64,000 nucleotides of DNA from Chloroflexota bacterium (GCA_027623195.1 JAQBUT010000005.1:31464-95463); one strand, 5' to 3'. Counted from the stretch's first letter, positions 35,282 through 54,935 are shown. Notes: generated by a model not told the origin, from the letters alone. Numbers and translations: made by a program.

Positions 35282-37042
35282 TTAGAATTCCCCAATGGTC
35301 CGGCTATTCAACGGCTGAACTGGCCGTGCGTTGCCTCCGAATATCGACATGAACTTATCCATCTGGGCCTTGGAGGCCTGTACCGGCTCCTGTACTACGA
35401 ACCACTTAACGCCTTCCGAACACGGGGGGGTGGTAAGCGAACCATCGAACGCGAAGTATTGAGCCTCGCTAGGGAGGATGTCCGTAATGCTGATTCTAAG
35501 GTCCGAAGCTACGTTGCCCTCTTCTCTGGGAAGGAAGTCCCAGAACTTGGCGAAGAGAGGGTTCTCCTCGCCGCTTTCGAATAGCACGCCGATGACGCCA
35601 AGACCGCCCCCGGCGTTCTTGTGGACCAGGTGCATTTCCATGGGGTACCTGCCGCCGTCCACGGAGTTTTCGCTAGGTGTATGGAAATGGAACTGCAGAA
35701 GGTCGTACTCTCCACCGTCCAGGTAGGCCACGCTGCCTGAATCGTAGTTAATCTGGATTGTGTGGCCGTTGTTAAGAATTGTTACGACCGTATCGCCGTA
35801 GTTAGTGAAGACGGAATTATCGGCGCCGACTGTAAATCTCGAGTCGATGTCAATTGGAGATTGCTCCACCCCGGTCTTGCAGGCGATGTAGTCGTCGGCC
35901 AGGTCTCCCCAGTAATTCGGGCCCGAATTGCCCTCGTAGGTCCAGTGAGGAGGGCCATCACCATGATCACCATTGCTAACCGTGGTGTCTCCGTGGTCAG
36001 GAGCGACCCCATGGGCATCGCCAGTGCTCCCGCCGGAAATGAGTCTTGCATGCAGAGGCTGCACCGGGCGATTGTTGTGCCCCAATATTCCGTTGAAAGC
36101 CGAGATCTGATCCCCGGACATCTCGATTGGGGTGCTCATGACGTTCCAGTTCACGCCTTCGCTGCATGGCGGCGTGGTGAGGGAACCGGAGTATGTATAG
36201 ATCTCCCTGTCGTGAGGTAGCATGGACTCGACGTTTACGTTGACGCCATGAACCTCTTTTACCTCACCTGCGCCGTGAGGCAGGTTTGCAACAAGCGACT
36301 GGAAGAAGGGGTTGGAATGACCCTCTTCGATGAATACGCCAACTACGGCCAGTTCGCCGCTCGCGCTCTTATGTACCAGGTGTCCCTCCATAGGGTAGTT
36401 CTGGGAGCTAACCTGATGCTCAGAAGGCGTATGGAAGTGGAACTGAAGCAGCTCGTACTGCTCGTGGTCGATGACTATCGAGCTGCCGGGCGCGTAATTC
36501 ACCTGCAAAGTGTGGCCGTTGTTCAGGATGCTCAACGGCACGTCGTTGTAGTTGAATTGAATGCTCGCTGGCTGGGCAAAGGCCGAGCCGGCAATGTCAA
36601 TTGGCGACTGGCTGGTGCCCGCCTTGCAGGCGATGAACTCGTCTGCCAGGTCTCCCCATTTGCTCGGACCGAGGTCTCCCTCGTAGGCCCAGTGGGGCGC
36701 GGCGCTGCCATGATCCGTGCTGGCAGGAGCGGCATGGCCCGTAGCAGGTGCTGCATGGTCTGTACTGGCTGGTGCAGCATGGCCCGTAGCGGGAGCGGCA
36801 TGGCTGTCGGCGGGAGCAGCGTGATCCGTGCTGGCAGGTGCAGCATGTGTATCTGAGGTCGCGACGCGCGACACCCTGGTCCTAGTCCTGGCACCGCTTT
36901 CCGCATCGCTGCTATCGGCAGCAGAAGCGGAAGTGCCACAGCCCGAAAGGACTAACAAAAGGGCAAATGCCAGCGCCGATAAAGCGATGGCATACCCTTT
37001 GCCCTTAAAAAGGGCCGTTCTAAGGTTTTGATCACTGATCAT
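35282..37042 (-). CDS. Lipoprotein with two tandem alpha-class carbonic anhydrase domains
   Basis: Lipobox VLSGC. Two copies of the alpha-CA signature set: HW(A/T)YEG, QSPIDI, LLQFHFHTPSE, HLVH and GSLTTPPCSEGV. All three Zn-ligand His residues are conserved in both domains. Confidence 0.85.
   Translation of the reverse strand: MISDQNLRTALFKGKGYAIALSALAFALLLVLSGCGTSASAADSSDAESGARTRTRVSRVATSDTHAAPASTDHAAPADSHAAPATGHAAPASTDHAAPATGHAAPASTDHGSAAPHWAYEGDLGPSKWGDLADEFIACKAGTSQSPIDIAGSAFAQPASIQFNYNDVPLSILNNGHTLQVNYAPGSSIVIDHEQYELLQFHFHTPSEHQVSSQNYPMEGHLVHKSASGELAVVGVFIEEGHSNPFFQSLVANLPHGAGEVKEVHGVNVNVESMLPHDREIYTYSGSLTTPPCSEGVNWNVMSTPIEMSGDQISAFNGILGHNNRPVQPLHARLISGGSTGDAHGVAPDHGDTTVSNGDHGDGPPHWTYEGNSGPNYWGDLADDYIACKTGVEQSPIDIDSRFTVGADNSVFTNYGDTVVTILNNGHTIQINYDSGSVAYLDGGEYDLLQFHFHTPSENSVDGGRYPMEMHLVHKNAGGGLGVIGVLFESGEENPLFAKFWDFLPREEGNVASDLRISITDILPSEAQYFAFDGSLTTPPCSEGVKWFVVQEPVQASKAQMDKFMSIFGGNARPVQPLNSRTIGEF
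36710..36847 (-). repeat. Coding tandem repeat HAAPA(S/T/D)(T/G/S)(D) x6 in the CA N-terminal linker
   Basis: Protein reads THAAPASTDHAAPADSHAAPATGHAAPASTDHAAPATGHAAPASTDHGSAAPHW. The DNA shows the reiterated unit GTGATCCGTGCTGGCAGG.GC.GCATG. Confidence 0.8.
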
Positions 37043-37630
37043 GATTCACCTCTAGCATAGTTTTGTTCTTCAAAGGTCGGATTCTGCTCGACACTCAGAA
37101 TCAGGTAAAAGCTATATTTAAGGTCCCTCGGCTTATCCGAAGGCCACGAACATGCCAACTAATTTCAATCGCTATGAAAAGTCGTTGCATTTTTTTGACG
37201 ATGTAGTCTCATATAAACGACAGAAACCGTCATAAACGTGATATCTGTACTTGTATGGGAGACTAACGGCTGAGGCTATTACCTATTTCTGCGCGAGGGG
37301 ACGGCGGCGGTGACATTTCCCGCCGGGCACCGACTCAAGGGTCCTGGGCATAGGCTGGAGGCACTTAATGGGTTTCACTGAGTGCGCGACAAGGCCTTTT
37401 CCCATCCGAATCTCAGTCTGGCCTGAAGGGGCTGTGGGCGCGACTTAAATCCGTTGAGCAATTCACAAATGCTTCCTACACGGAGGAAGTCGTTCTCGGA
37501 TTTACCAGACCTAGAACGTCTCGTCAGGAAATTGACACCAGTCCAGAGCGGGTGCTACGGTCTCCGCATCCTACACGTGCTTTCAGACGTCAGAACAATG
37601 CACATGGAATATCGATCAGAGGGAGAGTTC

Positions 37631-38443
37631 ATGGTTTCACAAGGCAAGCGGTTGCAGGGAAAGGTCGCCATAGTGACCGGCGCAGGTTCAAGGGGACCGG
37701 GAGTTGGGACCGGCAAGGCCACGGCTACGCTTTTCGCGCGGGAGGGGGCCAAGGTACTCCTGGTAGACAACGTAATCGCACGAGCCGAAGAAACTCTTGC
37801 TTCCATACTTTCCGAAGGGGGCGAGGCATCAGTCATAGAGGCCAACGTAACCGTCGAGGCGGAGTGCGAGCAGATCGTTCTCCAGGCTGTGGAGCGCTAC
37901 GGCGGACTTAACATCCTCTTCAACAACGTTGGCATTGGCGCGCCAGGCACGGTGCTGGACGTGACGGAGGAGGATTTCACGCGAGTCATCGATACGAACC
38001 TCAAGAGCATGATAATGCTGAGCAAATACGCTGTGCCCAAGATGATAGAGGCGGGGTCCGGCTCGGTTATCAATATGTCGTCAATTGCCGGCATAAGAGC
38101 GGGAAGCAGCGGGGCCAGCATTTCCTACGCCGTTTCCAAAGGTGGCGTAATAGCGCTCACAACTCAGATGGCTGTGCACCACGGACGACAGAACGTTCGC
38201 GTGAATTGCATAGCGCCAGGACCGCTTTACACACCCATGGTGGCACATCGGTTGTCCGAAGAGGCACGGGAGCTGAGACGAAAGAGCAATCCCCTGGGAT
38301 TAGAGGGGACAGCCTGGGACATCGCGTGGACGGCGCTATTCCTGGCCAGCGACGAGGCTCGATGGATTACGGGCGTTACCCTGCCCGTAGACGGAGGCGT
38401 GCTGGCAACAACACCTCTCTCAATGCTGGAACACCTGCGGTAG
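37631..38443 (+). CDS. SDR-family oxidoreductase
   Basis: TGAGSRGPGVG cofactor motif, NNVG, and a YxxxK-region (YAVSKGG). The ATG at 37631 is preceded by GAGGGAGAG. The ORF-track start at 37454 adds an implausible 59-aa extension. Confidence 0.85.
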   Translation: MVSQGKRLQGKVAIVTGAGSRGPGVGTGKATATLFAREGAKVLLVDNVIARAEETLASILSEGGEASVIEANVTVEAECEQIVLQAVERYGGLNILFNNVGIGAPGTVLDVTEEDFTRVIDTNLKSMIMLSKYAVPKMIEAGSGSVINMSSIAGIRAGSSGASISYAVSKGGVIALTTQMAVHHGRQNVRVNCIAPGPLYTPMVAHRLSEEARELRRKSNPLGLEGTAWDIAWTALFLASDEARWITGVTLPVDGGVLATTPLSMLEHLR

Positions 38444-39303: not shown

Positions 39304-39987
39304 TCAATCGCGCGTAGCCGTCCATACGATGTGTTGTCCGCCGCCTTTACCCAGACCTTTCCCTCGCGCCGACACCCTGACTTCGTTCAACTCGAAGCCA
39401 GCATGGCGCAACCGCTGGGAAAACGCTCCATCAGGACCAGGGGACCATATGGCCAATACCCCCTTCGGTCGTAATGCATTGAAGGCTGCGTTCAACCCCT
39501 GAAGGCCATAAAGCCAGTCGTTGCCCTTTCGGGTCAGCGCCTGTGGGCCGTTGTCAACGTCGAGGAGGATAGCATTGTAGTCACCCTTGGCCACCCTTAT
39601 CATTTGGGCAACGTCGGCTTCATGGATTGTGACCCGGTTGTCATCCAGAGGACTGTCAGCCAGATGGGCCAGGAATCTCCGGTTCCAACTGACCACGGCA
39701 GGCACCAGTTCGGCCACGACTACCTCGGCCTCAGCTTCAAGTCCATTTAGGGCCGACCTCAAGGTGTATCCCATACCCAGGCCGCCAATGAGAACGCGAG
39801 CTTGCGGTTCTTTTGTGATTTCTCGACATGCAAGATTGGCCAAAGCATCTTCGGACCCATGAATACGACTGTTCATGAGTTCATAATTGCCCGCCTTAAT
39901 TGAAAACTCAGTGTCACGCTGATGCAAACTAAGTTCTTCCCCATTCCCAGGCGTTTGCGCCGTGTCGAGTAACTTCCAGGGAATCAT
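39304..39987 (-). CDS. Spermidine synthase-like class I methyltransferase-fold protein
   Basis: VLIGGLGMGYTLRSAL (GxGxG), ILLDVDNGP and the N-terminal beta-hairpin region (LSLHQRDTEFSIKAGNYELMNS) are typical of this family. Confidence 0.6.
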   Translation of the reverse strand: MIPWKLLDTAQTPGNGEELSLHQRDTEFSIKAGNYELMNSRIHGSEDALANLACREITKEPQARVLIGGLGMGYTLRSALNGLEAEAEVVVAELVPAVVSWNRRFLAHLADSPLDDNRVTIHEADVAQMIRVAKGDYNAILLDVDNGPQALTRKGNDWLYGLQGLNAAFNALRPKGVLAIWSPGPDGAFSQRLRHAGFELNEVRVSARGKGLGKGGGQHIVWTATRD

Positions 39988-40200
39988 GGGGTCCTCTCGT
40001 GATACATTTTCGCTTTCACTGGGCTCATTTCAGGTCGAGTATTCAACGAGGTCGACCTTCGGGGAAGTGGGCTGGCAAGGCGTGGAGTTGATTGATTTCC
40101 GGTGGCATTCTCGGCTACGAGCGTTTAGCGACCAGTAGAGTATCAGGGGTCGAAGGGGATTTCCATTTCAGGACTTAACGGTGCGGTTTGGAGGATGTTT

Positions 40201-40249
40201 TGGTCGGGGAGACTGGATTTGAACCAGCGGCCCCTTGCACCCCATGCAG
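40201..40249 (-). repeat. Partial tRNA-Pro copy (3' 49 nt including CCA, T-arm and anticodon loop): att-like direct repeat
   Basis: 48 of 49 nt identical to 49325-49373, the 3' part of the intact tRNA-Pro, in the same orientation. Identity stops abruptly at 40250 and no 5' tRNA half is present. Confidence 0.8.
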
Positions 40250-40496
40250 TTTAACGCCCCAAAAAGCTAAGTGCCTGTTTAGACTGCTTCACGGGCCATG
40301 GAAACGCCTGCCATTTAACATATGCAGGCAGGGATTCGGCTTGCCACGTACTCCCGTATTTGCTGGCCTAATTCTACACCATGGCCTGCCAGACATCCAA
40401 GGGAATCAAATTAGTTAGGATGAACCCTAACAGATGATCTGCTGATACCGATTCTCCCCATTAACAATCTGCCCCACTTTCGCTGAAGGTCTACAG

Positions 40497-40985
40497 TCAG
40501 AGTGATTCCCCTCTCGCGATCCTGTCTGCTTCCTTCAAGAACAGTTCCTTTCGGGACTCAGACAGTCCTTGGAAAGTACGCACCAGACGCCGTTCGTCAT
40601 CCAGAGGGTGTTCCTGGGGGTTTTGCCGTTTCTCTATCAGAGCCTCGATTCGCTCGAGGAAATTTTCCACATCGAAGGGCTTAATCAGAAAATCGTCGGC
40701 ATCGATCTGTTTACTCTGGAGTACTGAAAATTCACTTGATACACCGGACATCATCAAGATCGAAGCGTCCGAGACACCGCGAGCCGCTCGGCAAAATTCA
40801 TGTCCGTCCATTCCAGGCATCCAGACATCAGAGACTATTATGTCAGGGCTGTAGTTCTCCAATATCTCAAGCGCCCGTTCCGCTGATTCGGCAACCTCAG
40901 TCTTGTAGCCGGCATCCTCCAACACGTCCTTGAGTATTTCGCGCAAAGCCTGCTCATCGTCAACGATAAGGATATTATTTGGCAT
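40497..40985 (-). CDS. Response regulator receiver protein with short C-terminal extension
   Basis: ILIVDDEQ...VSDVWMPGMDGHEF...IKPF receiver signature, plus a ~40-aa charged tail with no recognisable output domain. Confidence 0.8.
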   Translation of the reverse strand: MPNNILIVDDEQALREILKDVLEDAGYKTEVAESAERALEILENYSPDIIVSDVWMPGMDGHEFCRAARGVSDASILMMSGVSSEFSVLQSKQIDADDFLIKPFDVENFLERIEALIEKRQNPQEHPLDDERRLVRTFQGLSESRKELFLKEADRIARGESL

Positions 40986-41249
40986 GATTTTACCTCTCCC
41001 AATTGCACTGCTATGGACAATCTGTAGATTGGCAATATTGAGTCGGATAAAACCACATGGACGCCAGGGGTTTCAAATGACGGGAACGTCGCATCTTCTC
41101 AGATCCCGTGTTTCCTTCGCTGGTTCGTGGATAGTCTTGCGCGCGACCGTTAGGGACACCCCTTATTCCATCAAAGCCAGCAGGTACAGCGTGCGTTGCA
41201 AAATATAGTTAATGTCGCTGTTTCTCCGTAACAGACTCCGCAATTCTTA

Positions 41250-42404
41250 TTACTGCAGAATCTCCAGAAGCAGCTTGATTACCTGCTCTGGCTGTTCCTG
41301 TTGGACCCAGTGTCCGGCCCCTTCAAGCAGGTGAACGCCCTTCATCTGTGTGCAGGCTGTAGTCTTCATTTTCTCCAAAGCGCCTGGCCTCTGGAAGCTT
41401 CCCCAGTCACTGGCCCCGGCGATGAAATACGAAGGCACATCAATCGTTGATCCAGAGAACATCCGCAGGTCGTGATTGTACCTGGGGTCGGTACCGCAGC
41501 GGTATGAGTTCAGTCCGCCCTGGAATCCGTTTCGGGAGTATTCGTTGCTGTAAACGGCTAATTCGTCGTCTGTGAGCCAACTGCACGCTACCACTTCGGA
41601 TGCCGATGGCATCTCGGGCGCGACTGTTTCCGCCATACCCTTTTCCAGGTCCATAACGTAATAAGTGGGAAGCTTGGCTAGTTCGGATGCGCTCCACGAC
41701 TCCAGAGGGAAAGGTTTGTTCTGCATCCAGTCTGCACTTTTGAAATGATAATAAGCGCGAAGGAAGTCGTGAACGCCCTGAGGGCAGCTGCGCATGTTCT
41801 CATCGGCCTCGCGTGTCGAGTAGTACCACTGGTAATGCTTGCGAGGTGGAAGTAGGTTGGCGAGATCAGCATGAATGTCGGGCTCGGCGATTATCCCGGT
41901 TGCAGGCTCGTCATTTGCAGAATTGAAGGGCATTGGCGGTAGCCCCGCAAAGGGAGCGCTCATCATCACCACCGAGCGGAACACATCTGGCCGAATGAGG
42001 GAACACCATGCGGCGACGGGCGAACCGTAGTCATGGCCTACCACCGCGGCCACCGAGCGGTATCCCATAGCGAATACTAGTCCCAAGGCATCCTTAACAA
42101 TATTGGGCATGCGAAAGGAACTTACGTCGCCGTCGTAGCTGCTATCCCATCCCGTGGTTCGGCCGTAACCTCTCTGGTCGGGAGCGACAACGTGGAACCC
42201 CGCTTGGGAGAGTGGCAGCATCAGCTTTCTCCAACTGTACGCTAGCTCTGGAAAGCCGTGCAGCAGCAAGACACAGGGACGGCCATCCGTCTCGAACCCC
42301 GCCTCGAGAACATGTACGGTGAGACCATTATTGTTCTCCACGAACCGCGATCTTATCCCTGGAGGAAGCGTAGTTTCGCCGTAGGCTACATTCTTGTTAA
42401 TCAT
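41250..42404 (-). CDS. Alpha/beta hydrolase (epoxide hydrolase-like)
   Basis: VLLLHGFPELAYSWRKL...APDQRGYGRT, nucleophile elbow VVGHDYG, and C-terminal GAGHWVQQEQP. Confidence 0.8.
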   Translation of the reverse strand: MINKNVAYGETTLPPGIRSRFVENNNGLTVHVLEAGFETDGRPCVLLLHGFPELAYSWRKLMLPLSQAGFHVVAPDQRGYGRTTGWDSSYDGDVSSFRMPNIVKDALGLVFAMGYRSVAAVVGHDYGSPVAAWCSLIRPDVFRSVVMMSAPFAGLPPMPFNSANDEPATGIIAEPDIHADLANLLPPRKHYQWYYSTREADENMRSCPQGVHDFLRAYYHFKSADWMQNKPFPLESWSASELAKLPTYYVMDLEKGMAETVAPEMPSASEVVACSWLTDDELAVYSNEYSRNGFQGGLNSYRCGTDPRYNHDLRMFSGSTIDVPSYFIAGASDWGSFQRPGALEKMKTTACTQMKGVHLLEGAGHWVQQEQPEQVIKLLLEILQ

Positions 42405-42473
42405 GTTTCTTCAATTTGGATAACCCCATGTCCCAAACTCTCGATTCAGAATCTCGATGATTCACTGCGAGCC

Positions 42474-43454
42474 TTAATACCACTTCGACTTGTCTACTAC
42501 GTTGGCCATGGGTTCGTCATTTAGGAATCGCCTGGCGTTGTCGATTAATATCTCGTAGCGTCGCTCAGGGATGTTGCCGGCGTCGCGCACAGCCACGTGA
42601 GGCGTCAGCAGTACATTGGGCAGCCCCCAAAGTTTGTGCTCGGATGGCAGCGGCTCCTCTTCGAAAACGTCGAGCCCACATCCTGCGATCTGACCAGACT
42701 CGATTGCATCCGCTAGATCGTTGACCTTGCACACTTTGCCTCGCCCCACGTTAATGAAGTAGGAGGAGTTCTTCATGAGCTGGAAGCGCTTTGCATCGAA
42801 CATACCCTCAGTCTCTGGCGTATGAGGCACCGTGGTTATCACGAAGTCGGCCCGTCCTATCACGCTGTCAAGTTCGTCAGGCGTGTGGAATTCGACGTAC
42901 GGCAGTTCGAACTCCCGGCGCGGCTCGATACCTATAACCTCCATACCTAGCTCGTGGCAGATCCTGGCCGTCTCGTGACCTATGCCGCCCACGCCATTAA
43001 TGAGCGCCGTTGACTCCGACAGGTTAAGGTATGGGGACTTGCGGGCGTCCTTATCCCACTTGCGCTGGCGCTGAGCGTCTACGTACCAGGGAAGGCCTCG
43101 TGACAGCGCAAACACGAACATCATGATGTGATGGGAAATATGGTCGAAATAAATGCCTCGAGGATTGGTTATCGTTAACGGGTGCTCGACCAACTCAGGG
43201 TAGTAGTAGCCGAAGAAAGGCCCCGCGTCGGGGTTGTGCAGCCATTTCAGCTTGCCGGCGACCTCAAGGGCGGCGGGCGGCACCCATCCGAAGGCGCCGT
43301 CTGCGTCGCGGATTGCCTCGATGGCTTCCTGGTCGGTTTCAGGTGAGGCAACGTCGAGTTCGGACAGCGTGTCGCTCAGCCTGGCCGCAAATGAGCGTTT
43401 TAATTCATCCTGGGGCGGCATGAAAACAAACTTGGGAATAGGATCACCTCTCAA
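42474..43454 (-). CDS. D-isomer-specific 2-hydroxyacid dehydrogenase family protein
   Basis: NAD-binding INGVGGIGHETAR, FINVGRG, LDVFEEEPLP and TPHVA catalytic-region motifs. Confidence 0.85.
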   Translation of the reverse strand: MRGDPIPKFVFMPPQDELKRSFAARLSDTLSELDVASPETDQEAIEAIRDADGAFGWVPPAALEVAGKLKWLHNPDAGPFFGYYYPELVEHPLTITNPRGIYFDHISHHIMMFVFALSRGLPWYVDAQRQRKWDKDARKSPYLNLSESTALINGVGGIGHETARICHELGMEVIGIEPRREFELPYVEFHTPDELDSVIGRADFVITTVPHTPETEGMFDAKRFQLMKNSSYFINVGRGKVCKVNDLADAIESGQIAGCGLDVFEEEPLPSEHKLWGLPNVLLTPHVAVRDAGNIPERRYEILIDNARRFLNDEPMANVVDKSKWY

Positions 43455-44056
43455 TGTAAGACGAATGTATCGTCTGGTTCTCGTAACTTAAGCAGATCGG
43501 CATCGCTTTAGGAATCTGCCTTATCGGCCCGCATTATATCGGCATACCGTGCCGCTTTCCATTCCCACCAACTTTCGCTCTTTGGCATTAGCTACTAAAG
43601 GCAGCAGTACGCCTTCAGGGGCAGCACGAGGTTGGCACATGGGATGGATAGCTAAGGCTTTAAGTAGATGGGGTTCTGAATGCATATTCCCTTCCAGCCG
43701 CGACGCCAGTGCCGTCGAATATGTGTCCTTTCAACAAAAGGTAAGGCTGGCTTTCTGCAATGGCAACCTCCCCATGCCAAGGGGCGGTAGGACAGGCAAG
43801 AAAATGGGCACCAGCCTTAACGCTTTGCAAGTCCGGTGACAGCATGCACCGATCCACCACTCGGTAACGCCACGGTCAATACGAGATGGGCGTTAGCTCG
43901 AATTTGACAGCCTTCTGAGGCGTAAATATAATTCCCCCAACACAAAGTGCTCCCTCCTGCTGTGATATAGGCCGTTCGGCAGGAGGTGTTTTGAAGGAGC
44001 TTTTACCAGAATCGAAGAGGTATATCTGGATGGCTATATTCGGCAGTGGCGATCAT

Positions 44057-45031
44057 ATGTACGAGGTGGTGGAGGGTTTCTTCAAGCGCCCACGGGGGTG
44101 GCCTTTCGTGGAATGTGCCGATGTAGCCGTGGACAAGGATGATAACGTCTACGTCTTCAATCGTGGTCCCTATGCCGCCGTCATGATTTTCGACAAGGAT
44201 GGGAACTACCTCGATGGCTGGGGAAGGATCGGTGGAAGGCCGGAAACTGGCTTCGACTTCCAGGTCCCCCACGGCATAAGCGTGGGGCCTGACGGCTCCG
44301 TGTACACCAGCGACACGGGAGACCATACAGTGCGACGGTGGAGCAAGGAGGGGAAACTCCTTCTCACGATTGGGACGCCCATGAGCAGCGCGCCTGCGCA
44401 GAGTGGAACGCCATTCAACCGGCCCACCCACCTGACGGTCGCCTCCAACGGGGACTTTTACGCCTCCGACGGCTATGGTAACTCACACATTCACTGCTTC
44501 GACCCCTATGGCAAGCTCCGGTTCTCCTGGGGTGGCCACGGCAGCGGGCCCGGACAGTTCGATACCGTACATAGCGTCTTTATCGACGTGGAAGACGGCG
44601 ACAAAGTGTACGCAACCGACCGCTACAACAATCGCGTGCAGTTTTTCACACCGAAGGGCGAATTCCTCGGCGAGTGGACTGGGCTTAACCTGGCGAACGC
44701 GGTCCGTAAGGGGCCCGATGGGAATTTCTACGTTGCTGAATTGGACCACCGCGTCAGCATCCTGAGCCCAGAGGGCCAGTTGTTAGCCCGCTGGGGCGAG
44801 ACAGGTGCCGAGCTAGACGACAGCGAAACCGGCGGCGGGCTGCCCACCTCTCCCAGCCGCAATCCTATGATTAAAGGGAAGGTGATGCACGAGCCGGGGC
44901 CCGGACTCTTCGGTGCGCCCCACGGGATAGCGGTGGATTCGCAAGGGAGCTTCTACATCGCCGAGGTCAGCGAGACCTTCCTGGGCTTCGACCGGGGGGA
45001 CCGGAGTGTGCAGAAGTTCGTCCGCGTCTGA
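44057..45031 (+). CDS. NHL-repeat beta-propeller protein (peptidyl-alpha-hydroxyglycine lyase-like)
   Basis: Repeated PHG(I/V)xVDxxGxxYxxD-type units (PHGISVGPDGSVYTSD, FYASDGYGNSHIHCF, VYATDRYNNRVQFF, FYVAELDHRVS, PHGIAVDSQGSFYIAE). The ORF-track start at 43991 is a TTG. ATG at 44057. Confidence 0.7.
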   Translation: MYEVVEGFFKRPRGWPFVECADVAVDKDDNVYVFNRGPYAAVMIFDKDGNYLDGWGRIGGRPETGFDFQVPHGISVGPDGSVYTSDTGDHTVRRWSKEGKLLLTIGTPMSSAPAQSGTPFNRPTHLTVASNGDFYASDGYGNSHIHCFDPYGKLRFSWGGHGSGPGQFDTVHSVFIDVEDGDKVYATDRYNNRVQFFTPKGEFLGEWTGLNLANAVRKGPDGNFYVAELDHRVSILSPEGQLLARWGETGAELDDSETGGGLPTSPSRNPMIKGKVMHEPGPGLFGAPHGIAVDSQGSFYIAEVSETFLGFDRGDRSVQKFVRV

Positions 45032-45188
45032 GAGAGGATACGCTACTTCTTCGGTCAAGGCCCTCTCAGCCTCTCTTTGCCGGGCGCGTCGGGCAGGCAT
45101 GGCTGGCCTCCGAGGGGGTTAGTGGCACCATTAGCGTGAACCGCTCCCGCAGGTTAACGTCGCGTTGCTCTTCAAAGTTCATATTGCA

Positions 45189-46424
45189 TCACCTTTCTAT
45201 CTCGATGTCGAACTCCCCGGCCTCGATGACAGCCGCATCTTCCAGCCCGATGTCAAACCGTCGCCGCCAGCGCATCAGGGCGGCCAGGAACTCCAGCCAT
45301 CTCCTCTCTAGCTCGGAGGCTTCTCCGGCCCGCAGCGTTTCCTCCACCCATGCCAGGTCTTCGACAGTAGTCTGCCCGATGGGCAGGAAACTCAGGCGCG
45401 ATAGTTCCGACGTCCACAGCCGCACTGTCCCGTCACCGCCTCCGCTGGCCAGCACTCGCCCATCAGGGCTGACCGCCAGACAATTGACCCAACGCCCGTG
45501 TCCTTCCAGCGTCCTCAGGTGCTCCCCATCAGGCAGGCTCCATAGCCGCACCGTCTTGTCATCGCTTCCGCTGGCCAGCACTCGCCCATCAGGGCTGACC
45601 GCCAGACAGGTGACCGAATTCTCGTGTCCTTCCAGAACAGCTTTGAGGCCCGCTAGCTTACCCAGAAGAGGCCTGTCCACCTCCAGTCCCTCCGCCAGAC
45701 TAGCCAACTCCCCATAGCCCTCTAGCTCATCATCGCCTGCAGCCCATCCTACACTGCCAAGCCTTCCAAGCAGCCGTGCACTCCACATCGGCGGCGCTTC
45801 CTGCGCAAGTCGCCACATCTCACTCCACCGCCTGCTACCCTACAGCACAGCCACCACCGCCTCCCACTCCATCTCGCCCATCTCACCCAGCCGACGGCTC
45901 TTCCTCCCACCTACGGCGGCGCCTATCCACTCCACCCGCCCATGCTGCCTGGCCTTGTCTGCGACGCGTCTGCGCAGGCTCTCATCTGCTGCCATGTACA
46001 CGGCTTCGAGGAGCGAGTGGTCGAAGTCGAGGGAGTCGTAGCTGTCCCACTGCTCGCTCAGGAACAGGAACAGCGCACGCTGATGCTCATCTCTGGGTGC
46101 GTAGTGAGCGGCGACAGCGGTTTCGAGGGCGCCTGCATGGGCATACTCAATCACGAGGCGGCATAGCGACTCCTGCGCGCCAGTGTGGCCCTGCTCGGCG
46201 AGTTTTCGCAATGCCTCGAGCGACGCGGCTCCTTCTCGTCCATCATCGCTGTGCGATGCGGCCTCTTCCAAAACGGCCAACGCCTCAGGCGAGCCGTCTC
46301 TTGCCAGCGCCTGCGATGCTCTCAGCCCGCGCCAGCCCCCTATCAGCGGCATCCGGCTGTAAAGCCGTTGTCGCAGCTTTTCCACTCGCCTCGTGTCGCC
46401 TTGCGATACAGCGATTTGCTTCAT
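45189..46424 (-). pseudogene. HEAT-repeat / WD40-repeat protein gene with one in-frame TAG and only two WD40 units
   Basis: The HEAT-like N-terminal ORF (46424-45843) and the WD40 ORF (45818-45189) share one frame. They are separated only by TAG at 45840-45842 plus 7 open codons (GSRRWSE). WD40 units read GHxxxVxCLAVSPDGRVLASGxxDxTVRLW. Confidence 0.6.
45441..45608 (-). repeat. Near-identical 126-nt-period WD40 coding repeat
   Basis: A 42-nt block TCCGCTGGCCAGCACTCGCCCATCAGGGCTGACCGCCAGACA occurs perfectly at 45441-45482 and 45567-45608, exactly one WD40 unit apart. Confidence 0.85.
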
Positions 46425-46427
46425 TTA

Positions 46428-47089
46428 TCACCATCTCAGGGGGTCAATGCCGCTTATCATGACCTCACCTTCTGGGGTGATGATGGCTTCTGCAAGCGGC
46501 AGGTTCAGAGCACCCGCCCGTTCCACGGAGCCGGGATTCCCGCCCACCGCAATCCAAACAGGCAAAGGGTCTTGGACGGGCCTAGGGTACACGCCCTGGT
46601 CATTCAGGGAGGCCCGAAACTTGCCACTCCAGCTAATCCGCTCATTCTTGCGAATCTGTAGCAGCAGTTCAAATTTTTCCGCAAATAGCTCGTCATAGTC
46701 CCTCAGGTCGAACCCGAAAAGAGGGAAGGACTCTGTGAAGGAGCCGCGCCCAGCCATGATCTCCGCGCGACCTTCTGAAATAAGGTCAAGACTGGCGAAG
46801 TCCTGAAAGACACGCACGGGGTCGTCAGAACTAAGCACTGTCACCGCGCTGCTAAGACGAATAGACTTGGTATTCCTAGCTGCGGCTGCCAGGATAACGG
46901 CGGGTGACGGGGACAGGAAGTCCGGACGGTGATGCTCTCCCAACGCAAAGACGTCGAGTCCCACCTGCTCCGCAATTTAACTGACTCGATCAGATTACGC
47001 ATGCGATCCACCGGGCCAATTATCGTGCCTGTAACGGGATCTTGCGTTAGTTCGACAAAGGAGTACAGGCCTATTTCAAAGTGGCTCGT
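46428..47089 (-). pseudogene. LLM-class oxidoreductase pseudogene (start lost, 1-nt frameshift, 3' truncation)
   Basis: N-terminal HFEIGLYSFVELTQDP...NLIESVKL is in one frame and (A)[14 protein letters not shown]... in another, with an apparent missing G near 46970-46975. ACG sits where ATG is expected (47087-47089). Only about 200 of the ~330 expected aa are present. The ORF stops 3 nt before the HEAT-WD40 start. Confidence 0.6.
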
Positions 47090-47692
47090 CGAAGGGGATG
47101 ATTCTGCATCCTTAATCTCATCCACTTTGAGGGGCGAATTATCTGTCAATCTGGTACTCTCCCTTGACTGAAACGATCGGTCCAACTCGCAGGCCTATTA
47201 GTCAGGTATATGCTGCGCAACGCTTGATACAAAACTTCGACATTAGTTTCGTCAGGGTGACGTGTGAATATGTCTTCCATCTTGCGAAGGATCAGACTGC
47301 CAGATAGTTCGCCAGGTCTCCCCTTGACATACCGCGGTCGGACTTGTCGTTCATATGCACGGGCACATCAAACCATTCTAAAGGCTTCAATGGGTCGCTG
47401 CCCATACAGCTGTGGTCTCAATATCCGAGCAGGAAAATTGTGTTTCTAATGAAAACGTTTGTTGATGGCCCACTAAAAGTGTACCGGCGAGGCGGCATTC
47501 GCCTTTGGCATAAAACGGCATATTAGCTACTCCATATTTAGTGGTGCGTCCACAGTAAATGTGAACCTCGGCGTCACAGCATATTCCTACTTGGGGCAGG
47601 GCGCAGGTGGTTTTGCGAGACACCCTGCACCAAGAGGCCAGGCGTGTCATTACGAGCTTCCACCATAGTTATTCCGTTGCTAAATCAGCAGA

Positions 47693-48586
47693 TTACCAAG
47701 GCATAGTTCTTCCCATTTCTTTTCTCAAGGTGTCTGCCACCGCTGAATCGGGAACATGAAGAATCCTCGCACCGACCTCAAACAAAGCGTGACGCGCACG
47801 CTCCTCGATTGTCATGCTAGGATCTTGCCAACTGCAGAGGAAAGTAAGCCCAGCTTTGTCGCATGCACTTTTCACTATATGCCGTGCGTTGTCCATTTCC
47901 GGAAGGTAAGGAGGGTCGTGTTGTTCAGGGTCGCCAAACGACATGCCCATGTCCCCCGGACCCCATTCAGCGAAGGAGAGACCTGGGACCGCCGCGATAT
48001 TATCGGCGTCAGGTAGGCAGAATCTATCCTCTATCTTAAGTCCCAGCATTAACTCCCCGTCTGGATTCAACGGCCAGGGATCGGCTTTCCGCATATAATC
48101 GACCGGGTCCAGCCCCCAAATAGCGGCCGGTTCTTTTTGGCCTCCTCCGCCTCGGAGACCCTCAGGAATGCCCTTGTCTCGGCCGATCGTCTGGAAAACG
48201 TATCGAGACGCAGCCACGAACGTAGCAACTGCGTCAGCCCTTCGCGTATGAGTGTGAAGGATGCCGTGCACGCCGGTTGACAGGACGTGTCTGGCCTGCC
48301 AAGCGTTGTATATCATTTCTTCGGGCGTCATACAGTTTGAAGGCAGCGTGGTTATGACTGTTGGTGTGCGGTGTCCGCTCGGAGTGGGGCCCCCATCTCG
48401 TAGCCCCTTCATAAACTGCGACAGTCCAACCGTATCGAACGGACTATGCTCGAAATCAAATTGAATCATGTCGGCCCATGTCTGCGACATCTCTTTGCCG
48501 GATTCGTAGGTCAGTTCCGGGGCTGAGATTGAAAAGATTGCCTGATCTTGCTCTATAAGGTCTATGCATTTGTTGATTCTAGCCAT
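47693..48586 (-). CDS. HpcH/HpaI aldolase/citrate-lyase family protein (divergent)
   Basis: DMIQFDFEHSPFD, LGLKIEDR and AVPGLSFAEWGPGDMGMSFG motifs. The ATG at 48586 is preceded by GGAAGGAA. Confidence 0.6.
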   Translation of the reverse strand: MARINKCIDLIEQDQAIFSISAPELTYESGKEMSQTWADMIQFDFEHSPFDTVGLSQFMKGLRDGGPTPSGHRTPTVITTLPSNCMTPEEMIYNAWQARHVLSTGVHGILHTHTRRADAVATFVAASRYVFQTIGRDKGIPEGLRGGGGQKEPAAIWGLDPVDYMRKADPWPLNPDGELMLGLKIEDRFCLPDADNIAAVPGLSFAEWGPGDMGMSFGDPEQHDPPYLPEMDNARHIVKSACDKAGLTFLCSWQDPSMTIEERARHALFEVGARILHVPDSAVADTLRKEMGRTMPW

Positions 48587-48789
48587 TGAGTTCCTTCCGA
48601 TCCAAAACGAATTTAGGACGTATTTAATCAACAATTAACGCTGTAATCAAGAACGCAATTCGGTTAAGACATAATGCGCCTTTGTGCCGACTAGAACAGA
48701 TTCATGATGAAAAATAAGAGGTGGTGGCAATTATCTTCCCGGACTACCTAATCGATTAGACCAGACGACAAGACGGTCTCGCATGCAAC

Positions 48790-49150
48790 ACACTAAAGTT
48801 TGCTCAATTCGAAACGCCGAACCCAGAACGTTGATGTCGTCTGTGTATCTAATACGCCTACTCCTCTTCGCCTTCTACGTGCTTATAGCAGATTTTTACC
48901 GAGTGCCATACCTGCTGTAATACGCAATGAACTGCCTTATCACCATCTCGTCCAAGTTTTTAAAAGACGTCGACGTCTGTCCGTCTTCCAACCAAACTTA
49001 GAGCATCCCGAGGACTTCGTTTTACCACTTTACGGTTCTAGGGGACTTGCCTTCGGTCTTGTTGTGAACCTCAAAGTGTTTTATGAATATGGAGAGGTCA
49101 GAGTTACCCTTATCAATCGCTTCCCACCCTGCGTATCGGCCATCTCCCAT
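48790..49150 (-). pseudogene. Tyrosine recombinase (phage integrase) N-terminal remnant
   Basis: The minus-strand frame reads MGDGRYAGWEAIDKGNSDLSIFIKHFEVHNKTEGKSPRTVKW*NEVLGML*VWLEDGQTSTSFKNLDEMVIRQFIAYYSRYGTR*. This resembles the SAM-like core-binding domain pattern (F..h......S..T...Y...L..F..WL). It has in-frame TAA stops and no catalytic domain. GGAGGA SD upstream. It sits next to the tRNA. Confidence 0.4.
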
Positions 49151-49260
49151 GATAGATACTATCCTCCGTTCCGGTAATAGTCTGTCAGGCGAGCAACCGG
49201 GTCGGAAACAGAAAACTACGCATATGCCGGAGGTCGGATTAGGATATTTGGACAGAAATC

Positions 49261-49290
49261 AAAAGAAAAAGACCGCCTCAATAGGCGGTC
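49261..49290 (-). terminator. Rho-independent terminator immediately 3' of tRNA-Pro
   Basis: The minus strand reads GACCGCC-TATTGA-GGCGGTC followed by TTTTTCTTTT. Confidence 0.6.
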
Positions 49291-49324
49291 TCTACGAGTT
49301 CATTAAGGGGTGCAATTCATTTTT

Positions 49325-49401
49325 TGGTCGGGGAGACTGGATTTGAACCAGCGGCCCCCTGCACCCCATGCAGGTGCGCTACCATGCTGCGCCACTCCCC
49401 G
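49325..49401 (-). tRNA. tRNA-Pro(GGG): tRNA-Pro (anticodon GGG), CCA encoded
   Basis: Manual fold of the 77-nt minus-strand sequence. Acceptor CGGGGAG/CTCCCCG, D-arm GCGC/GCGC, anticodon stem CCTGC/GCAGG with loop AU-GGG-GU, T-arm GCTGG-TTCAAAT-CCAGT, discriminator A, then CCA. Confidence 0.9.
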
Positions 49402-49533
49402 ACCTTGGACACCGCTAGGATAGCACAGGCATATCAGCCGTTCAAGATTTCCAGAGTGTGGAAGGTATGAGTATTTGGAACGTCAGGCCGTTACCTTTTC
49501 ACGCTAAACCGTCTATCCCCACATGGGTGTAGC

Positions 49534-50385
49534 CTAGCCTTTGTCCTGTAGCCGTCTGCCGTGGAAGAGGTACTGATTGGCGTAGCCGGCGTAGGTCCCA
49601 AAGAACTCCTGAGCCCACGGACGCATGGCCTTGCGCGTCAGCTTCTGCTCGACGACCTCTGGGTACCACTCTTTCAAGGCCCGGTCAATCCAGACATCGA
49701 CGGGAAAGGCTTGCGGCTTATCCAGCGAGAAGAGCAGGACGCAGTTGGCCACCTTATCCCCAATACCCGGTAACTCTATCAGGGCTTCCAGCGCCTCGTC
49801 GTAGGAGGCTTCCCGCAATGAATATAAGTCCACATCACCGCGCGCAATACGTTGGGCGGCCCCGGCGACGTACTTGGCGCGAAATCCCAGGCCCAGGTCT
49901 CTAAGCTTCTGCTCACCCGCGTCAGCCAGAGCACTGGGAGAGGGGAAAATGCTTCGTACCTGCCCATTCATCTCAAGAGCCTGACCGAAGCTCCTGGCCA
50001 TGTCCTCCACGTTGGTTGAGATACGCGGGATGTTGGAGTTGGCGGAACATATGAAGGAAACCATGCACTCCCACGGCTCCTGCCGAAGAATGCGAAGCCC
50101 CTTATACTTGTCAACGGCTGCGCTGATCTGCTCGCCTTTGCCTATGGAATCACCAATGGCGTCGAGGTCGTCGTCCAGCCGCAGGTAATCACGGAACAGT
50201 GGCGCGATGACCGCCTCATCATCTGGGGCGCAGAGGAACTCAACGCCCTGGGCCAGTTGTCTGGTTCGAATGATGTTATTGAACAGTACACCGTTGAACC
50301 AGCCATCCTCAAGACGCCATCGAAAAGCCTGCCCGCCAAGGAGCATGCTTTCTAGGTCCAGTATTCCATCAAAGGGTATTAACAT
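49534..50385 (-). CDS. ogg: 8-oxoguanine DNA glycosylase / AP lyase (OGG1-type, OGG_N + HhH-GPD)
   Basis: The N-terminal GGQAFRWR region and LPGIGDKVANCVLLFSLDKPQAFPVDVW closely mirror the OGG1 HhH-GPD active-site segment (catalytic Lys in LDKP, Asp in PVDV). Confidence 0.8.
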   Translation of the reverse strand: MLIPFDGILDLESMLLGGQAFRWRLEDGWFNGVLFNNIIRTRQLAQGVEFLCAPDDEAVIAPLFRDYLRLDDDLDAIGDSIGKGEQISAAVDKYKGLRILRQEPWECMVSFICSANSNIPRISTNVEDMARSFGQALEMNGQVRSIFPSPSALADAGEQKLRDLGLGFRAKYVAGAAQRIARGDVDLYSLREASYDEALEALIELPGIGDKVANCVLLFSLDKPQAFPVDVWIDRALKEWYPEVVEQKLTRKAMRPWAQEFFGTYAGYANQYLFHGRRLQDKG

Positions 50386-50461
50386 AATTTTTTAGACCGG
50401 GCCAAGCACTACTTAAATTATTAATGCCAATTTGCCCGAATTTCCTGCCTTCAATATGGTA

Positions 50462-53317
50462 TTACCTGTTCATCCAGTCCCTGATAACCGTATCCAACTC
50501 GTGCAAATCGCATGAGGTGAACTTGGCCGGGGGCAACGATTTCAGGAAAGACTGGCCATATCGCCGGGACACAAGACGCTTGTCCAGTAGAATGGCCACG
50601 CCTCGATCACTCTTGGTACGGATAAGCCGACCGAAGCCCTGCCGTAGTCGCAGAATGGCCTGTGGCACCGCGTATTCCATAAATGAGTTCTCGTATAACT
50701 CCGAACGAGCGGCGAACACAGGGTCCGAGGGTACGCTAAAGGGAAGTCGGGTAACGAGCAAAACCTTCAACGCGTCACCCGGCAAGTCCACACCTTCCCA
50801 GAAGCTGGCGGTGCCAATAAGCACCGACTTCGGGTTATCCATGAAGCGTTGGACTAGCTGCCTGGGCGAGCCGTCTGTGCCTTGGGCTAGCACGGTTATT
50901 CCTCTGGACTGAAGGTCCTCCCGCACAGCGGAGGCTGTGGCCTGAAGGCCTGCATAAGAGGTGAAAAGAGCCATAGTACGCCCGTCCACGGCTATGGCAG
51001 CATCTTTCACGGCCTGTTCGACGGCCTCCTGGTACGCATAGGAGTTGGGCTCGGGCATGTCCTGAGGCACGCAGATTAGCGCCGAATTCGGGTAATCGAA
51101 AGGTGAGCCCAGCAAAAGCTCCTCTGCATCGGTAAAACCGGTGCGCTCCACCACGTGACTAAAGCTGTCATTGGTGCTTAAGGTCGCGCTGGTGAGCACC
51201 ACGCAGTCTTTTGTGGAGAACAGGATCTCCTCCAGTGTGTCGCCTACGTGAAGCGGTGCGGAGTAGAGGACCAGCTCCTGATTTCTGCCGAGGCGCCGCG
51301 CCCAATAAATACCGTCGCTCTTCGGATTTGGCACGAACTCCTTCAGCTTGTCTCGCAGCTCCGTGTTGGTCTGAAGGTTGTTGTATATCTCCATAAGGAG
51401 ACCGTCGTAATTGAGAAGGTTTGCATCTTCTAGGCCTTCCAGCGAAACATTAAGGCGACGAATCTCCGTGCCAAGCTCGGACAGCATAACGTCGGCGTTC
51501 TGCCACTGAATCTCCAAGTCGGACCAACCCGGCTGCGAACGCGTGCCCGCCGTGACCCGCACCTCCTGACCTTTGCCGTTATCGGAGGCCGAGTCCATGA
51601 CCGAGCCAATGCCTGCGAAAAGCTGTGCCACGTTATCTCGGACCCTGGGCAGAAGCTCCGTTATCTTGGCCGCCTGCTTTTCTACGGAATCTTTACGGCC
51701 AGCGGAGGCTGTTGCGGTCCTGAAGGCGTTTATCGACTCGTTCAGCAGCCCACGCTCTCCGCTCAGAGACTGCGTATGGTCATCGAAACGGGCCTGGCTC
51801 AACTCAAATCCGAGGTGACGCGTGGCCTCCTCTTCGAGGTGATGAGCCTCGTCAATAATCAAAAGGTCGTATTCCGGGATGAGCGTGCCGCCAGCCGTGA
51901 GGTCCGAAAGAAGCAGGGCATGATTCACGACAACGAGATGGGACGCCGCCGCCTTCTCCCTGGATGCACGTAAAAAACACGGACCGCCTGAACTCAGGCA
52001 GTCCGTGGCGCCCTGAGCGGAGAGCCTGTCCCACGGCGCGGCGGTGTTGCGGCTACCCAGATTCAACTCGCTACGGTCGCCGGTTTCCGTAGTCTGCAGC
52101 CATACCATTATCTTGGCCAACATACGGGCTTCGTCTTCGTCGATGCTATCGTTCGAACGCAGGTGGTTCCATCGGCGCAAACAAAGGTAATTTGCCCTGC
52201 CCTTGAGCTGTGTGAATTTCAGTTCCTCAGCGTTTAGCCCCTCAATGGCCGACAGCGCCTGCACCAGGATAGGCACGTCCTTGCCCACAAGTTGTTCCTG
52301 CAACGCGATGGTGTTGGTAGAAACCACAACACGCTTGTTGTTTGCCAGGGCATAAAGAGCGGCAGGCAGCAGGTAGGCCAGCGATTTACCTACACCGGTT
52401 CCCGCCTCGACCAGCAGACGCTGGCCCTCGTTAATGGCCTTGGTTACGGCCTTTGCCATCTCCGCCTGTTCGGGTCTGTGGTCAAAACCAGGCAATGCCT
52501 GGGCCAGAGGGCTTCCCTCACTAAACAGGCTCGTCACCAGGTCTTCATCGACCTTGGTGACATCCCTGCTCGGGCGCAACGACCGTTCTCGTTGTAGCCT
52601 CTTCTCCAGGTCGCCGGTATCCAGGCCGCTGATGTCCACACTGGTTCTGAACTTAGGGGGAAGAGCCGCCATACCAGGCATTCCAGAGCCGTTCCCTGAT
52701 GGGTTCGCTCCCAGGCCACGCAGCAGGTAGCCCAGAACCCACGACGACCTGTCAGCCAGGCGCTGCATCTCCGCCACAGAATTGACATCTAGTTTCGCAG
52801 CGTCCTTGAGAAGCTCGACGAAAAGCTCTTTAGTAGCCAGGGCGTCATCGATTGCTCTGTGGGGTCGGTCGTGCGTCAGCCCCATACGGTCCGTCAAGCG
52901 GGAGAGGGAATACTCAGGCATACCAGGGTGCAGCACGTAGACCATATCCCAGGTGTCGCAACGTGGGTTGCTGAGCTTGAGGCCCGCCTTCTCCAGAAAG
53001 CCGACGTCGAAGGCAACGTTGTGACCGATAATTGGCGCGTTGCCTAGAAAGGCGGCCAGGCGGCCCACCACCAGTTCAAAGGGCGGCGCTTCATCCACCT
53101 GCTCCTGGGAAATGCTGGTGAAACGCTTGATAAAGGACGATAGCTTTCGACTGGGGTTAACAAAGGTCTGGAACGTATCCAGGACCTGTTCGCCCTGAAA
53201 CTTGACCGCGCCAATCTCTATGATGGCTTCCTTATCAACGTTCAGGCCGGTGGTCTCGAGGTCGATGGCTACCCACACGTCTTCAAAGGGCGAAGTGTGG
53301 AGAGGGAAAAGAGTCAT
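50462..53317 (-). CDS. dinG: Bifunctional DnaQ-like 3'-5' exonuclease / DinG-family ATP-dependent DNA helicase
   Basis: N-terminal DEDDh exonuclease motifs (VAIDLETTG, GHNVAFD, HRAIDDA). Then helicase motif I (AGTGVGKS), DEAH box (IIDEAHHLE) and C-terminal helicase motifs (SATL, VLIGTASFWEGVD, QGFGRLIR). 951 aa. Confidence 0.88.
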   Translation of the reverse strand: MTLFPLHTSPFEDVWVAIDLETTGLNVDKEAIIEIGAVKFQGEQVLDTFQTFVNPSRKLSSFIKRFTSISQEQVDEAPPFELVVGRLAAFLGNAPIIGHNVAFDVGFLEKAGLKLSNPRCDTWDMVYVLHPGMPEYSLSRLTDRMGLTHDRPHRAIDDALATKELFVELLKDAAKLDVNSVAEMQRLADRSSWVLGYLLRGLGANPSGNGSGMPGMAALPPKFRTSVDISGLDTGDLEKRLQRERSLRPSRDVTKVDEDLVTSLFSEGSPLAQALPGFDHRPEQAEMAKAVTKAINEGQRLLVEAGTGVGKSLAYLLPAALYALANNKRVVVSTNTIALQEQLVGKDVPILVQALSAIEGLNAEELKFTQLKGRANYLCLRRWNHLRSNDSIDEDEARMLAKIMVWLQTTETGDRSELNLGSRNTAAPWDRLSAQGATDCLSSGGPCFLRASREKAAASHLVVVNHALLLSDLTAGGTLIPEYDLLIIDEAHHLEEEATRHLGFELSQARFDDHTQSLSGERGLLNESINAFRTATASAGRKDSVEKQAAKITELLPRVRDNVAQLFAGIGSVMDSASDNGKGQEVRVTAGTRSQPGWSDLEIQWQNADVMLSELGTEIRRLNVSLEGLEDANLLNYDGLLMEIYNNLQTNTELRDKLKEFVPNPKSDGIYWARRLGRNQELVLYSAPLHVGDTLEEILFSTKDCVVLTSATLSTNDSFSHVVERTGFTDAEELLLGSPFDYPNSALICVPQDMPEPNSYAYQEAVEQAVKDAAIAVDGRTMALFTSYAGLQATASAVREDLQSRGITVLAQGTDGSPRQLVQRFMDNPKSVLIGTASFWEGVDLPGDALKVLLVTRLPFSVPSDPVFAARSELYENSFMEYAVPQAILRLRQGFGRLIRTKSDRGVAILLDKRLVSRRYGQSFLKSLPPAKFTSCDLHELDTVIRDWMNR

Positions 53318-53601
53318 AGGTGACGCTCACTAGAATGGCGGATGAGTTGGCTTCTGTTCACGTAACCATGCTAGCAAATTCACGGGCCTAAAGTCTGCGA
53401 CGAGGGATGCGGATTTCATGCGTCGATGTGGTAATAAACAGGGCTACGCTCTTTGAAATCTTATCCGTGGAGTGTAGAAGAGATGAACTGGATTGAACCT
53501 ATGGCAGTCGGGACTAATGGAAGAAAAAGAGGAATTTCGCCGAGGAAATTTAATGGCCAAACGCCTTACCGGCTAATTGCCCGGATAGGTCAGGCAAATC
53601 A

Positions 53602-53706: not shown

Positions 53707-53804
53707 GCTGAACCTGATACCCCTACTCAACACTGTTTGCAACATCGCTTACCCCCCCCGAGTTTGATCACGTTTATAGTCCTGCCCAACACTAAGTGAA
53801 GTTA

Positions 53805-54870: not shown

Positions 54871-54935
54871 TTTCTTGGGTATCTATTAATAACATTGCGC
54901 GGTCCCGCGCCGTAAATGATTGAATTGAGAGGTAA

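Follow-up and report, generated by a model that had tools for sequence, protein, structure and literature searches.

Probable remnant of a tRNA-Pro(GGG)-integrated genomic island in an uncultured marine Dehalococcoidia (SAR202-like) lineage

We analyzed a stretch of DNA from a Chloroflexota bacterium (GCA_027623195.1, JAQBUT010000005.1:31464-95463; 64,000 nt, hereafter the window) in which positions 40201-49324 are very probably what remains of a genomic island inserted by site-specific integration into the 3' part of a tRNA-Pro(GGG) gene. Four observations support this directly: a direct repeat of the tRNA 3' part that brackets the region, an integrase remnant beside the tRNA that belongs to a definable family, an unoccupied site in relatives, and the linkage of that integrase family to tRNA genes. 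The repeat, the remnant and the empty site support the integration footprint at a tRNA 3' end that an original prediction, made from the window alone, had proposed. The recombination mechanism described below draws on what is known of tyrosine integrases and of islands in tRNA genes (tDNA); likewise, we infer that the left attachment site carries the element's own copy of the tRNA 3' part and that the element brought the present cargo along. Loci in other genomes and metagenomes are denoted by L numbers and integrases by P numbers.

The only tRNA gene in the window, called by ARAGORN and Rfam (RF00005, 59 bits), is an intact tRNA-Pro(GGG) at 49325-49401 on the minus strand, 100% identical to the tRNA-Pro of a relative (L002). 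A direct-repeat search paired 40195-40249 with 49319-49373 (53 of 55 positions identical); within this block the tRNA portion, 40201-40249 against 49325-49373, matches at 48 of 49 positions on the same strand, so that the intact gene and the like-oriented copy described in the original prediction are both borne out. Identity extends from the 5' strand of the anticodon stem (tRNA position 29) through the anticodon loop, variable loop, T arm and 3' strand of the acceptor stem to CCA, and the 6 nt beyond CCA (40195-40200) still belong to the repeat. The single mismatch in the tRNA portion, G in the gene and A in the fragment, lies in the 3' strand of the anticodon stem; either attP and attB already differed at this base or the non-functional copy mutated afterwards. 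Flank comparison also upheld the abrupt end of the repeat: the bases adjoining 40249 show no similarity to the tRNA 5' half, and no trace of a decayed 5' half was found. The window contains no third copy, the next best matches being at most 12 nt long, and a near-perfect 49-nt match within 64 kb cannot be a chance event. Since the 3' end of the tRNA faces lower coordinates, the order is intact gene, 9.1 kb of intervening DNA, and displaced 3' fragment. The 3' 49 nt of the gene (49325-49373) make up the attL core, which the element presumably contributed, and the displaced fragment (40201-40249, minus strand) forms the attR core.

An 84-codon frame begins 174 nt from the tRNA, also on the minus strand (48899-49150), and is the pseudogene of a tyrosine integrase of which only the N-terminal SAM-like/core-binding domain persists (about residues 1-84). 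It is interrupted by two TAA stops (49024-49022 and 49000-48998), at both of which homologues have Tyr. Because direct Pfam matches of the remnant to SAM-like domains fell below threshold (E 0.05; 0.001-0.02 for the homologue P0002), we built a profile from the exact remnant fragments and three homologues (P0001-3) and searched it against 1.8 billion representative proteins. This profile matched 478 proteins, always at their N-terminus. Full-length proteins among them (P0033, 361 aa; P0039, 357 aa; P0145, 340 aa; P0098, 416 aa) carry a Phage_integrase catalytic domain (PF00589, E 1e-28 to 1e-37) and SAM-like domains that pass Pfam cut-offs, and it is to residues 1-79 of such proteins that the family profile aligns. 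In the reverse direction, tblastn of the full-length integrases matched the window only at 49153-48920, through their residues 1-79 (E 1e-12 to 9e-18), and detected no catalytic domain with R-H-R-Y residues in the window past about residue 84. A profile search of the remnant against PDB sequences returned nothing relevant. Taken together, the profile matches and the reverse tblastn identify the remnant as the core-binding N-terminus of a tyrosine integrase, as had been predicted. A deletion has taken away its C-terminal part.

The 8-oxoguanine glycosylase (OGG) gene that flanks the tRNA places the window among metagenome-assembled genomes (MAGs) of the Dehalococcoidia/SAR202 cluster. The order DinG-like helicase, OGG, tRNA-Pro(GGG) is kept in 28 genome loci and in further metagenome loci, and none of the island genes was found within 10 kb at these DinG-OGG-tRNA-Pro loci of relatives. 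The empty site that the original prediction called for is present: in L002, in L085-L088 (OGG protein 85% identical) and in L077 (OGG 65%), the intact tRNA-Pro leads straight into sequence homologous to window positions 40145-40200 (minus strand; the B flank), which in the window follows the displaced fragment. In the window itself, and in L089, the intact tRNA is instead followed directly by a different sequence (49324-49151 in the window, minus strand; the A flank). Global alignment scores separate the two classes, with 33 and 22 for A, 11-12 for B, at most -1 for all other loci and at most 7 for shuffled sequences. In L085 and L077 the B flank runs into a terminator and then the same TPR-like gene (in L077 after an insert containing IS630), so B is the native chromosomal flank and the site is unoccupied there; the native terminator present in the relatives' B flank is absent after the displaced fragment of the window. 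We found no relative with the same gene order and no repeat. Up to the end of the tRNA, L089 and L085 share 93.6% identity; past it, L089 switches to an A arm with a 150-aa truncated integrase followed by different genes. The site is therefore polymorphic between close genomes and has been used by related elements.

The A flank is the integrase-proximal arm of the element. In the window it contains a GC-rich hairpin with a T run, which forms a terminator at about 49293-49260 (-18 kcal/mol, z -2.8), a conserved box AATCCGACC, a box TGCTCGCCTGACAGAC and a ribosome-binding site, and it is 74% identical to the arm of L089. Elsewhere, too, integrase genes of the family share the strand of a tRNA 155-208 nt upstream of them and are separated from it by a conserved arm. 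The family is tRNA-linked at 10 of the 10 loci whose upstream DNA has a tRNA call; these include Pro(GGG) in L089, L173 and L174, Val(TAC) in L082, L083 and L168, Gly(TCC) in L167 (with the intact P0039) and L175, and Arg(TCT) in L172. No tRNA was seen upstream of the member in L165; L166 and L084, where the integrase gene lies less than 200 nt from the contig end, were left out of this assessment. Arms at tRNA-Val, tRNA-Gly, tRNA-Arg and tRNA-Pro share one architecture: a GC-rich hairpin with a T run, a AATCCGACCCCCTGC box, and a TGCTTGCC...CAGAC...GGAGGCAAG element that spans the ribosome-binding site of the integrase gene and can pair across it. This common architecture behind the tRNAs indicates that the element brings both the tRNA 3' part and a terminator for the tRNA.

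Most members of the family are damaged. All 36 close integrase relatives in a collection of 5.8 billion proteins are truncated (at most 241 aa), some of them on contigs of 0.1-2.9 Mb, and no full-length close relative of the window integrase was found in that collection. An IS256-type transposase gene directly follows the truncated integrase frame in L173 and L175, and in L172 the integrase N-terminus is fused to a fragment of a luciferase-like monooxygenase (LLM). The intact member P0039 heads another island in L166, whose family member carries BrxC/BrxD-like genes. At the tRNA-Val(TAC) locus L082 (7459-7543 and 8415-8499), and likewise in L083, we observed an 85-nt direct repeat of another kind, with copies 74% identical and 956 bp apart. 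It comprises 48 nt upstream of the tRNA and the tRNA's first 37 nt, with an 83-aa open reading frame (ORF) between the copies, and thus duplicates the tRNA 5' half, the opposite of the 3'-fragment pattern.

These observations fit a mechanism modeled on known tyrosine integrases. An integrase encoded at the tRNA-proximal end of the element would have recombined the element's attP with the chromosomal tRNA-Pro gene. The attP would have consisted of a distal arm, a 49-nt tRNA-like core from anticodon stem to CCA, and the A arm with its own terminator, followed by int; attB would have been tRNA-Pro with the B flank, and the crossover presumably took place in the anticodon-loop region. The element's copy would then complete a functional tRNA (attL, 49325-49373) and its hairpin would terminate the tRNA transcript, while the host's original 3' end would have been displaced by 9.1 kb (attR, 40201-40249), still joined to about 55 nt of native flank. 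Later, the integrase gene would have lost its catalytic domain to a deletion and gained two nonsense mutations. With the catalytic domain lost and the frame interrupted, the island is no longer self-mobile, and its removal would be feasible only through a related integrase acting in trans or through homologous recombination between the 49-nt repeats. Several cargo genes are likewise broken.

The original prediction had described the element as old and immobilised. Immobilised it is, given the lost catalytic domain and the two nonsense codons, but an old age is not supported. Between the displaced fragment and the gene, 1 of 49 positions has changed, whereas in near-neutral non-coding DNA (the B flank and the spacer between OGG and the tRNA) the window shares just 61-66% identity with its nearest relatives. 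A freely drifting fragment would be expected to have accumulated roughly 7-9 changes since that split, and the Poisson probability of at most one change is about 0.007 at an expectation of 7. Judged from these comparisons, the integration would be much younger than the L085/L089 split, and so recent relative to the separation of the window from its nearest known relatives, unless gene conversion has kept the repeats alike. The window and L089 probably acquired their insertions independently.

A check of composition gave no signal, and by itself neither supports nor refutes integration. The tetranucleotide distance of the island is 0.114, within the 0.089-0.138 of same-size windows, and its GC content is 54.8% against 55.6%. 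A recent integration that leaves no deviation in k-mers or GC is better explained by a donor of similar composition than by amelioration. The donor was thus probably compositionally similar and most likely another Dehalococcoidia/SAR202-like genome.

Several observations weigh against an integrated island. The region lacks compositional deviation, and no intact integrase, excisionase or other mobility gene was found in the window by Pfam, tblastn, PADLOC or PHROGs. Homology at the empty site extends over only about 55 nt, and the genomes that show it are about 25% or more diverged and belong to another population; past the homologous stretch the gene order differs, with MT, CMD and SDR genes in the window versus TPR and M28 peptidase genes in L085. 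The sole other contig with the island, L001 (JGI 3300004369, Ga0065726_12859), is 100% identical to window positions 39534-57999 over 18,466 nt and is therefore not independent evidence of it. The island's own cargo genes were not found beside the same integrase family or in syntenic blocks elsewhere. Finally, L085 contains at 19107-19223 (contig Ga0209089_10000085) a 46-nt copy of the tRNA-Pro(GGG) 3' part that starts in the anticodon stem exactly as the window repeat does, is followed by an A-type terminator (GAGACCGCCAATTGAGGCGGTCTTTTT), and lies 8 kb downstream of the intact tRNA bearing the native B flank. A tRNA-Pro(CGG) gene lies 230 nt upstream of this relic on the other strand, and an SbcD-like gene follows it. 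The relic is an attP-like junction in a chromosome, hints at tandem or secondary-site integration, and shows that the history of the locus is more complex than a single insertion. Apart from this relic, a second tRNA fragment was sought in vain in the loci of the 28 relatives and in L168, L172-L175, L082 and L089; with no intact two-ended relative found, the arrival of the present cargo in one piece is unproven.

These points bear most on a possibility to which we give a minority share of credence and which is compatible with an integrated island: that one integration event left the repeat and the integrase remnant, and that much of the 9.1 kb arrived or was reshuffled later in a composite hot spot, whether by tandem integrations that lost their internal att sites, by deletions, or by recombinational replacement. 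The region downstream of tRNA-Pro differs in each lineage examined (window, L085, L089 and L077); L077 has a 9.4-kb IS630-containing insert after its B flank and L085 its extra att-like relic. Within the window, the integrase C-terminus has been deleted without a locatable second deletion end, and the cargo consists of single catabolic genes that elsewhere occur in unrelated contexts. Yet there are only two att copies in the window and neither an insertion sequence nor a second integrase inside the island, and the low divergence of the repeat leaves little time for extensive remodelling.

An ancient shared insertion is considerably less probable. In that case an A-type element would have entered tRNA-Pro before the split between the window and L089, the empty site of L085 and L002 would have arisen later by deletion between the repeats, and gene conversion would have preserved the 48/49 identity. 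The colinearity of the window and L089 from DinG through tRNA, arm and integrase N-terminus, at 71-75% identity like that of the flanking genes, would agree with such a history, as would the truncation of the integrase in both. However, one substitution is observed in the displaced fragment where 7-9 are expected (P about 0.007), the cargo past the integrase is unrelated in the two, their truncation points differ (about residue 84 in the window, about residue 125 in L089), and L085, 93.6% identical to L089, is empty. Least likely by far is a decayed second tRNA-Pro gene or a segmental duplication in which no integrase took part. Partial tRNA copies of unclear origin do occur in relatives, namely the tRNA-Val 5'-half repeat of L082/L083 and the L085 relic, but the copy in the window covers exactly the canonical attB extent from anticodon stem to CCA, has no 5' half, and is joined to the native downstream flank while the gene is joined to an integrase arm of a family that is tRNA-linked wherever an upstream tRNA was called.

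We assessed the gene content of the island by Pfam, NCBIfam and PDB searches and its lesions by frame analysis, and most of the cargo proved to be as originally described. From the attR side, a receiver-only response regulator of 162 aa (40497-40985, minus strand; PF00072, E 4e-28) has no output domain. It is followed by an epoxide-hydrolase-like alpha/beta hydrolase (41250-42404, minus; Pfam), whose best PDB matches (E 3e-44) are all epoxide hydrolases and which aligns over its full length to M. tuberculosis EphB, and by a D-isomer-specific 2-hydroxyacid dehydrogenase (42474-43454, minus; PF02826, E 8e-54; NF041369, E 2.5e-57, below the equivalog cut-off). An NHL-repeat beta-propeller protein (43991-45031, plus; Pfam NHL, E 6e-24) has a distant ScyF-like match below cut-off. 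The next frame (45189-46424, minus) had been predicted as an amber-interrupted HEAT-WD40 gene: a TAG at 45842-45840 does split it in frame, and the downstream 209 aa carry WD40 repeats, one unit of which corresponds to a 126-nt internal repeat; for the upstream 194 aa the HEAT label has weak support (HEAT_2, E 0.017, under the cut-off). The broken LLM gene (about 46428-47185, minus; PF00296, E 6e-37 on the fragment) carries a frameshift close to 46965, and its C-terminal part is cut off at profile position 188 of 314. The divergent HpcH/HpaI-aldolase-like protein nearest the integrase (47693-48634, minus; PF03328, E 2e-6, 27.6 bits against a cut-off of 25) had no PDB sequence match; its likely start is 48586, matching the JGI gene call.

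The epoxide-hydrolase-like protein shows unusual conservation, with more than 100 cluster representatives at 70-82% identity in several phyla, some annotated from Kiritimatiellae, Planctomycetota, Lentisphaerae and Burkholderiales MAGs, and these sequence comparisons suggest an enzyme that is either widely exchanged or strongly constrained. Its closest homologues sit in unrelated catabolic neighbourhoods. With homologues spread over several phyla in unrelated settings, the cargo looks like a mosaic of individually mobile catabolic genes and not like an operon. We also considered other kinds of element. A prophage was rejected, as PHROGs gave only generic receiver, hydrolase and propeller matches and no capsid, tail, terminase, packaging or lysis genes; an integrative conjugative or mobilisable element was rejected, as Pfam found no relaxase, coupling-protein or type IV secretion system families among the island ORFs; and an anti-phage defence island was rejected, as PADLOC gave only weak domain-level receiver, WD40 and oxidoreductase matches.

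Beyond the island, the surroundings of OGG vary in further ways. Four more distant genomes that lack a tRNA-Pro at this place have orthologues of the window SDR gene (37454-38443), 61-66% identical, at 0.5-8 kb downstream of OGG (L026:11336-12160, L030:13293-14102, L041:17626-18435 and L045:14892-15770), which suggests that the left flank of the window is an old neighbour of OGG and that the tRNA-linked variable region was inserted into an OGG-SDR neighbourhood. In the Dehalococcoidia loci L053 (10001-12687), L059 (10001-11784) and L017 (10001-11924), which lack the tRNA-Pro, the DinG-like gene has two or three OGG paralogues in tandem downstream of it. The L077 insert (11107-20470) separates the B flank with its terminator from the TPR-like gene, which in L085 comes immediately after B; the insert encodes a 909-aa P-loop ATPase, an IS630-type transposase in two ORFs, a 542-aa coiled-coil-like protein and a DnaJ-domain membrane protein, and is bounded by no tRNA repeat. 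Farther to the left in the window, the ORF at 35282-37042 encodes a 586-aa eukaryotic-type (alpha) carbonic anhydrase, whose N-terminal part contains tandem 21/24-nt repeats (36723-36847; four copies, GCAGGAGCGGCATGGCCCGTA-like).

The structure at tRNA-Pro agrees closely with the tDNA islands catalogued by Islander, in which a regenerated target and a displaced fragment mark the island ends (PMC4383910). As in those islands, a tyrosine integrase inserted DNA into a tRNA gene, element sequence presumably regenerated the gene, the displaced 3' fragment lies in direct orientation at the far end, and the integrase gene, here a remnant, stands beside the tRNA. Intact target tRNA, displaced direct fragment and a site uninterrupted in relatives (over about 55 nt of homology) are all present, and so is integrase-derived sequence within the island, albeit as a pseudogene without a catalytic domain, which makes its testimony historical and not functional. 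The window island differs in having an integrase of about 84 N-terminal codons with two stops, in lacking compositional deviation, and in its host, an uncultured Dehalococcoidia/SAR202-like lineage. A full-text literature search found no published description of tRNA-gene islands in SAR202. In one of the known sublocation classes, attB reaches from the anticodon loop as far as CCA (bioRxiv 10.1101/2020.11.02.365908); the identity block in the window, 49 nt from tRNA position 29 to CCA plus about 6 nt, resembles this class.

The integrase subfamily is Chloroflexota-associated and has a SAM-like N-terminus (PF13495/PF02899), not the Arm-DNA-binding N-terminus of P4-type integrases. P0033, P0039, P0145 and P0098 share the Phage_int_SAM and Phage_integrase architecture of XerC/XerD-like recombinases, and JGI labels fragments of the family 'site-specific recombinase XerD'; unlike those chromosome-dimer resolvases, however, the family consists of tRNA-adjacent element integrases with variable cargo downstream, and the copy in the window has no catalytic domain. 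The integration logic and att structure are also those of prophages and integrative conjugative elements at tRNA genes, whereas the cargo of the window is metabolic and regulatory, with no structural, packaging or conjugation genes found by Pfam, PHROGs or PADLOC.

The window island is thus a degraded tDNA-integrated island of a well-understood type in a little-studied, uncultured marine lineage. As a textbook tRNA-gene island it changes no concept, and its value is local: the att boundaries are given precisely, and the tRNA-Pro(GGG) locus downstream of DinG-OGG is marked as a variable hot spot in an abundant uncultured marine lineage. Annotation of these genomes should take into account that several ORFs of the window are pseudogenes, that small 'hypothetical proteins' beside tRNAs are integrase stumps, and that absence of a GC or k-mer deviation does not rule out recent integration. 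The most interesting by-product is the integrase family itself, tRNA-linked, with at least four tRNA specificities and an overwhelming share of truncated copies; together with its conserved arm it could serve for mapping islands, and hence horizontally moved catabolic genes, in SAR202-like MAGs.

More tentatively, and at less than even odds, we suggest that the window island may be a decayed member of a lineage-specific group of tRNA-targeting integrative elements of Dehalococcoidia/SAR202-like bacteria. Its defining arm may comprise a GATACGAAG box, a terminator hairpin, a AATCCGACCCCCTGC box and a hairpin over the integrase ribosome-binding site; its integrases may have switched among at least four targets (Pro-GGG, Val-TAC, Gly-TCC and Arg-TCT); and its elements may turn over rapidly, nearly all database copies being truncated, and may carry single catabolic genes (LLM monooxygenases, aldolases, hydrolases and dehydrogenases) among related genomes. 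SAR202 is known for enzyme-paralog expansions, and if this picture is true, such elements would add to them.

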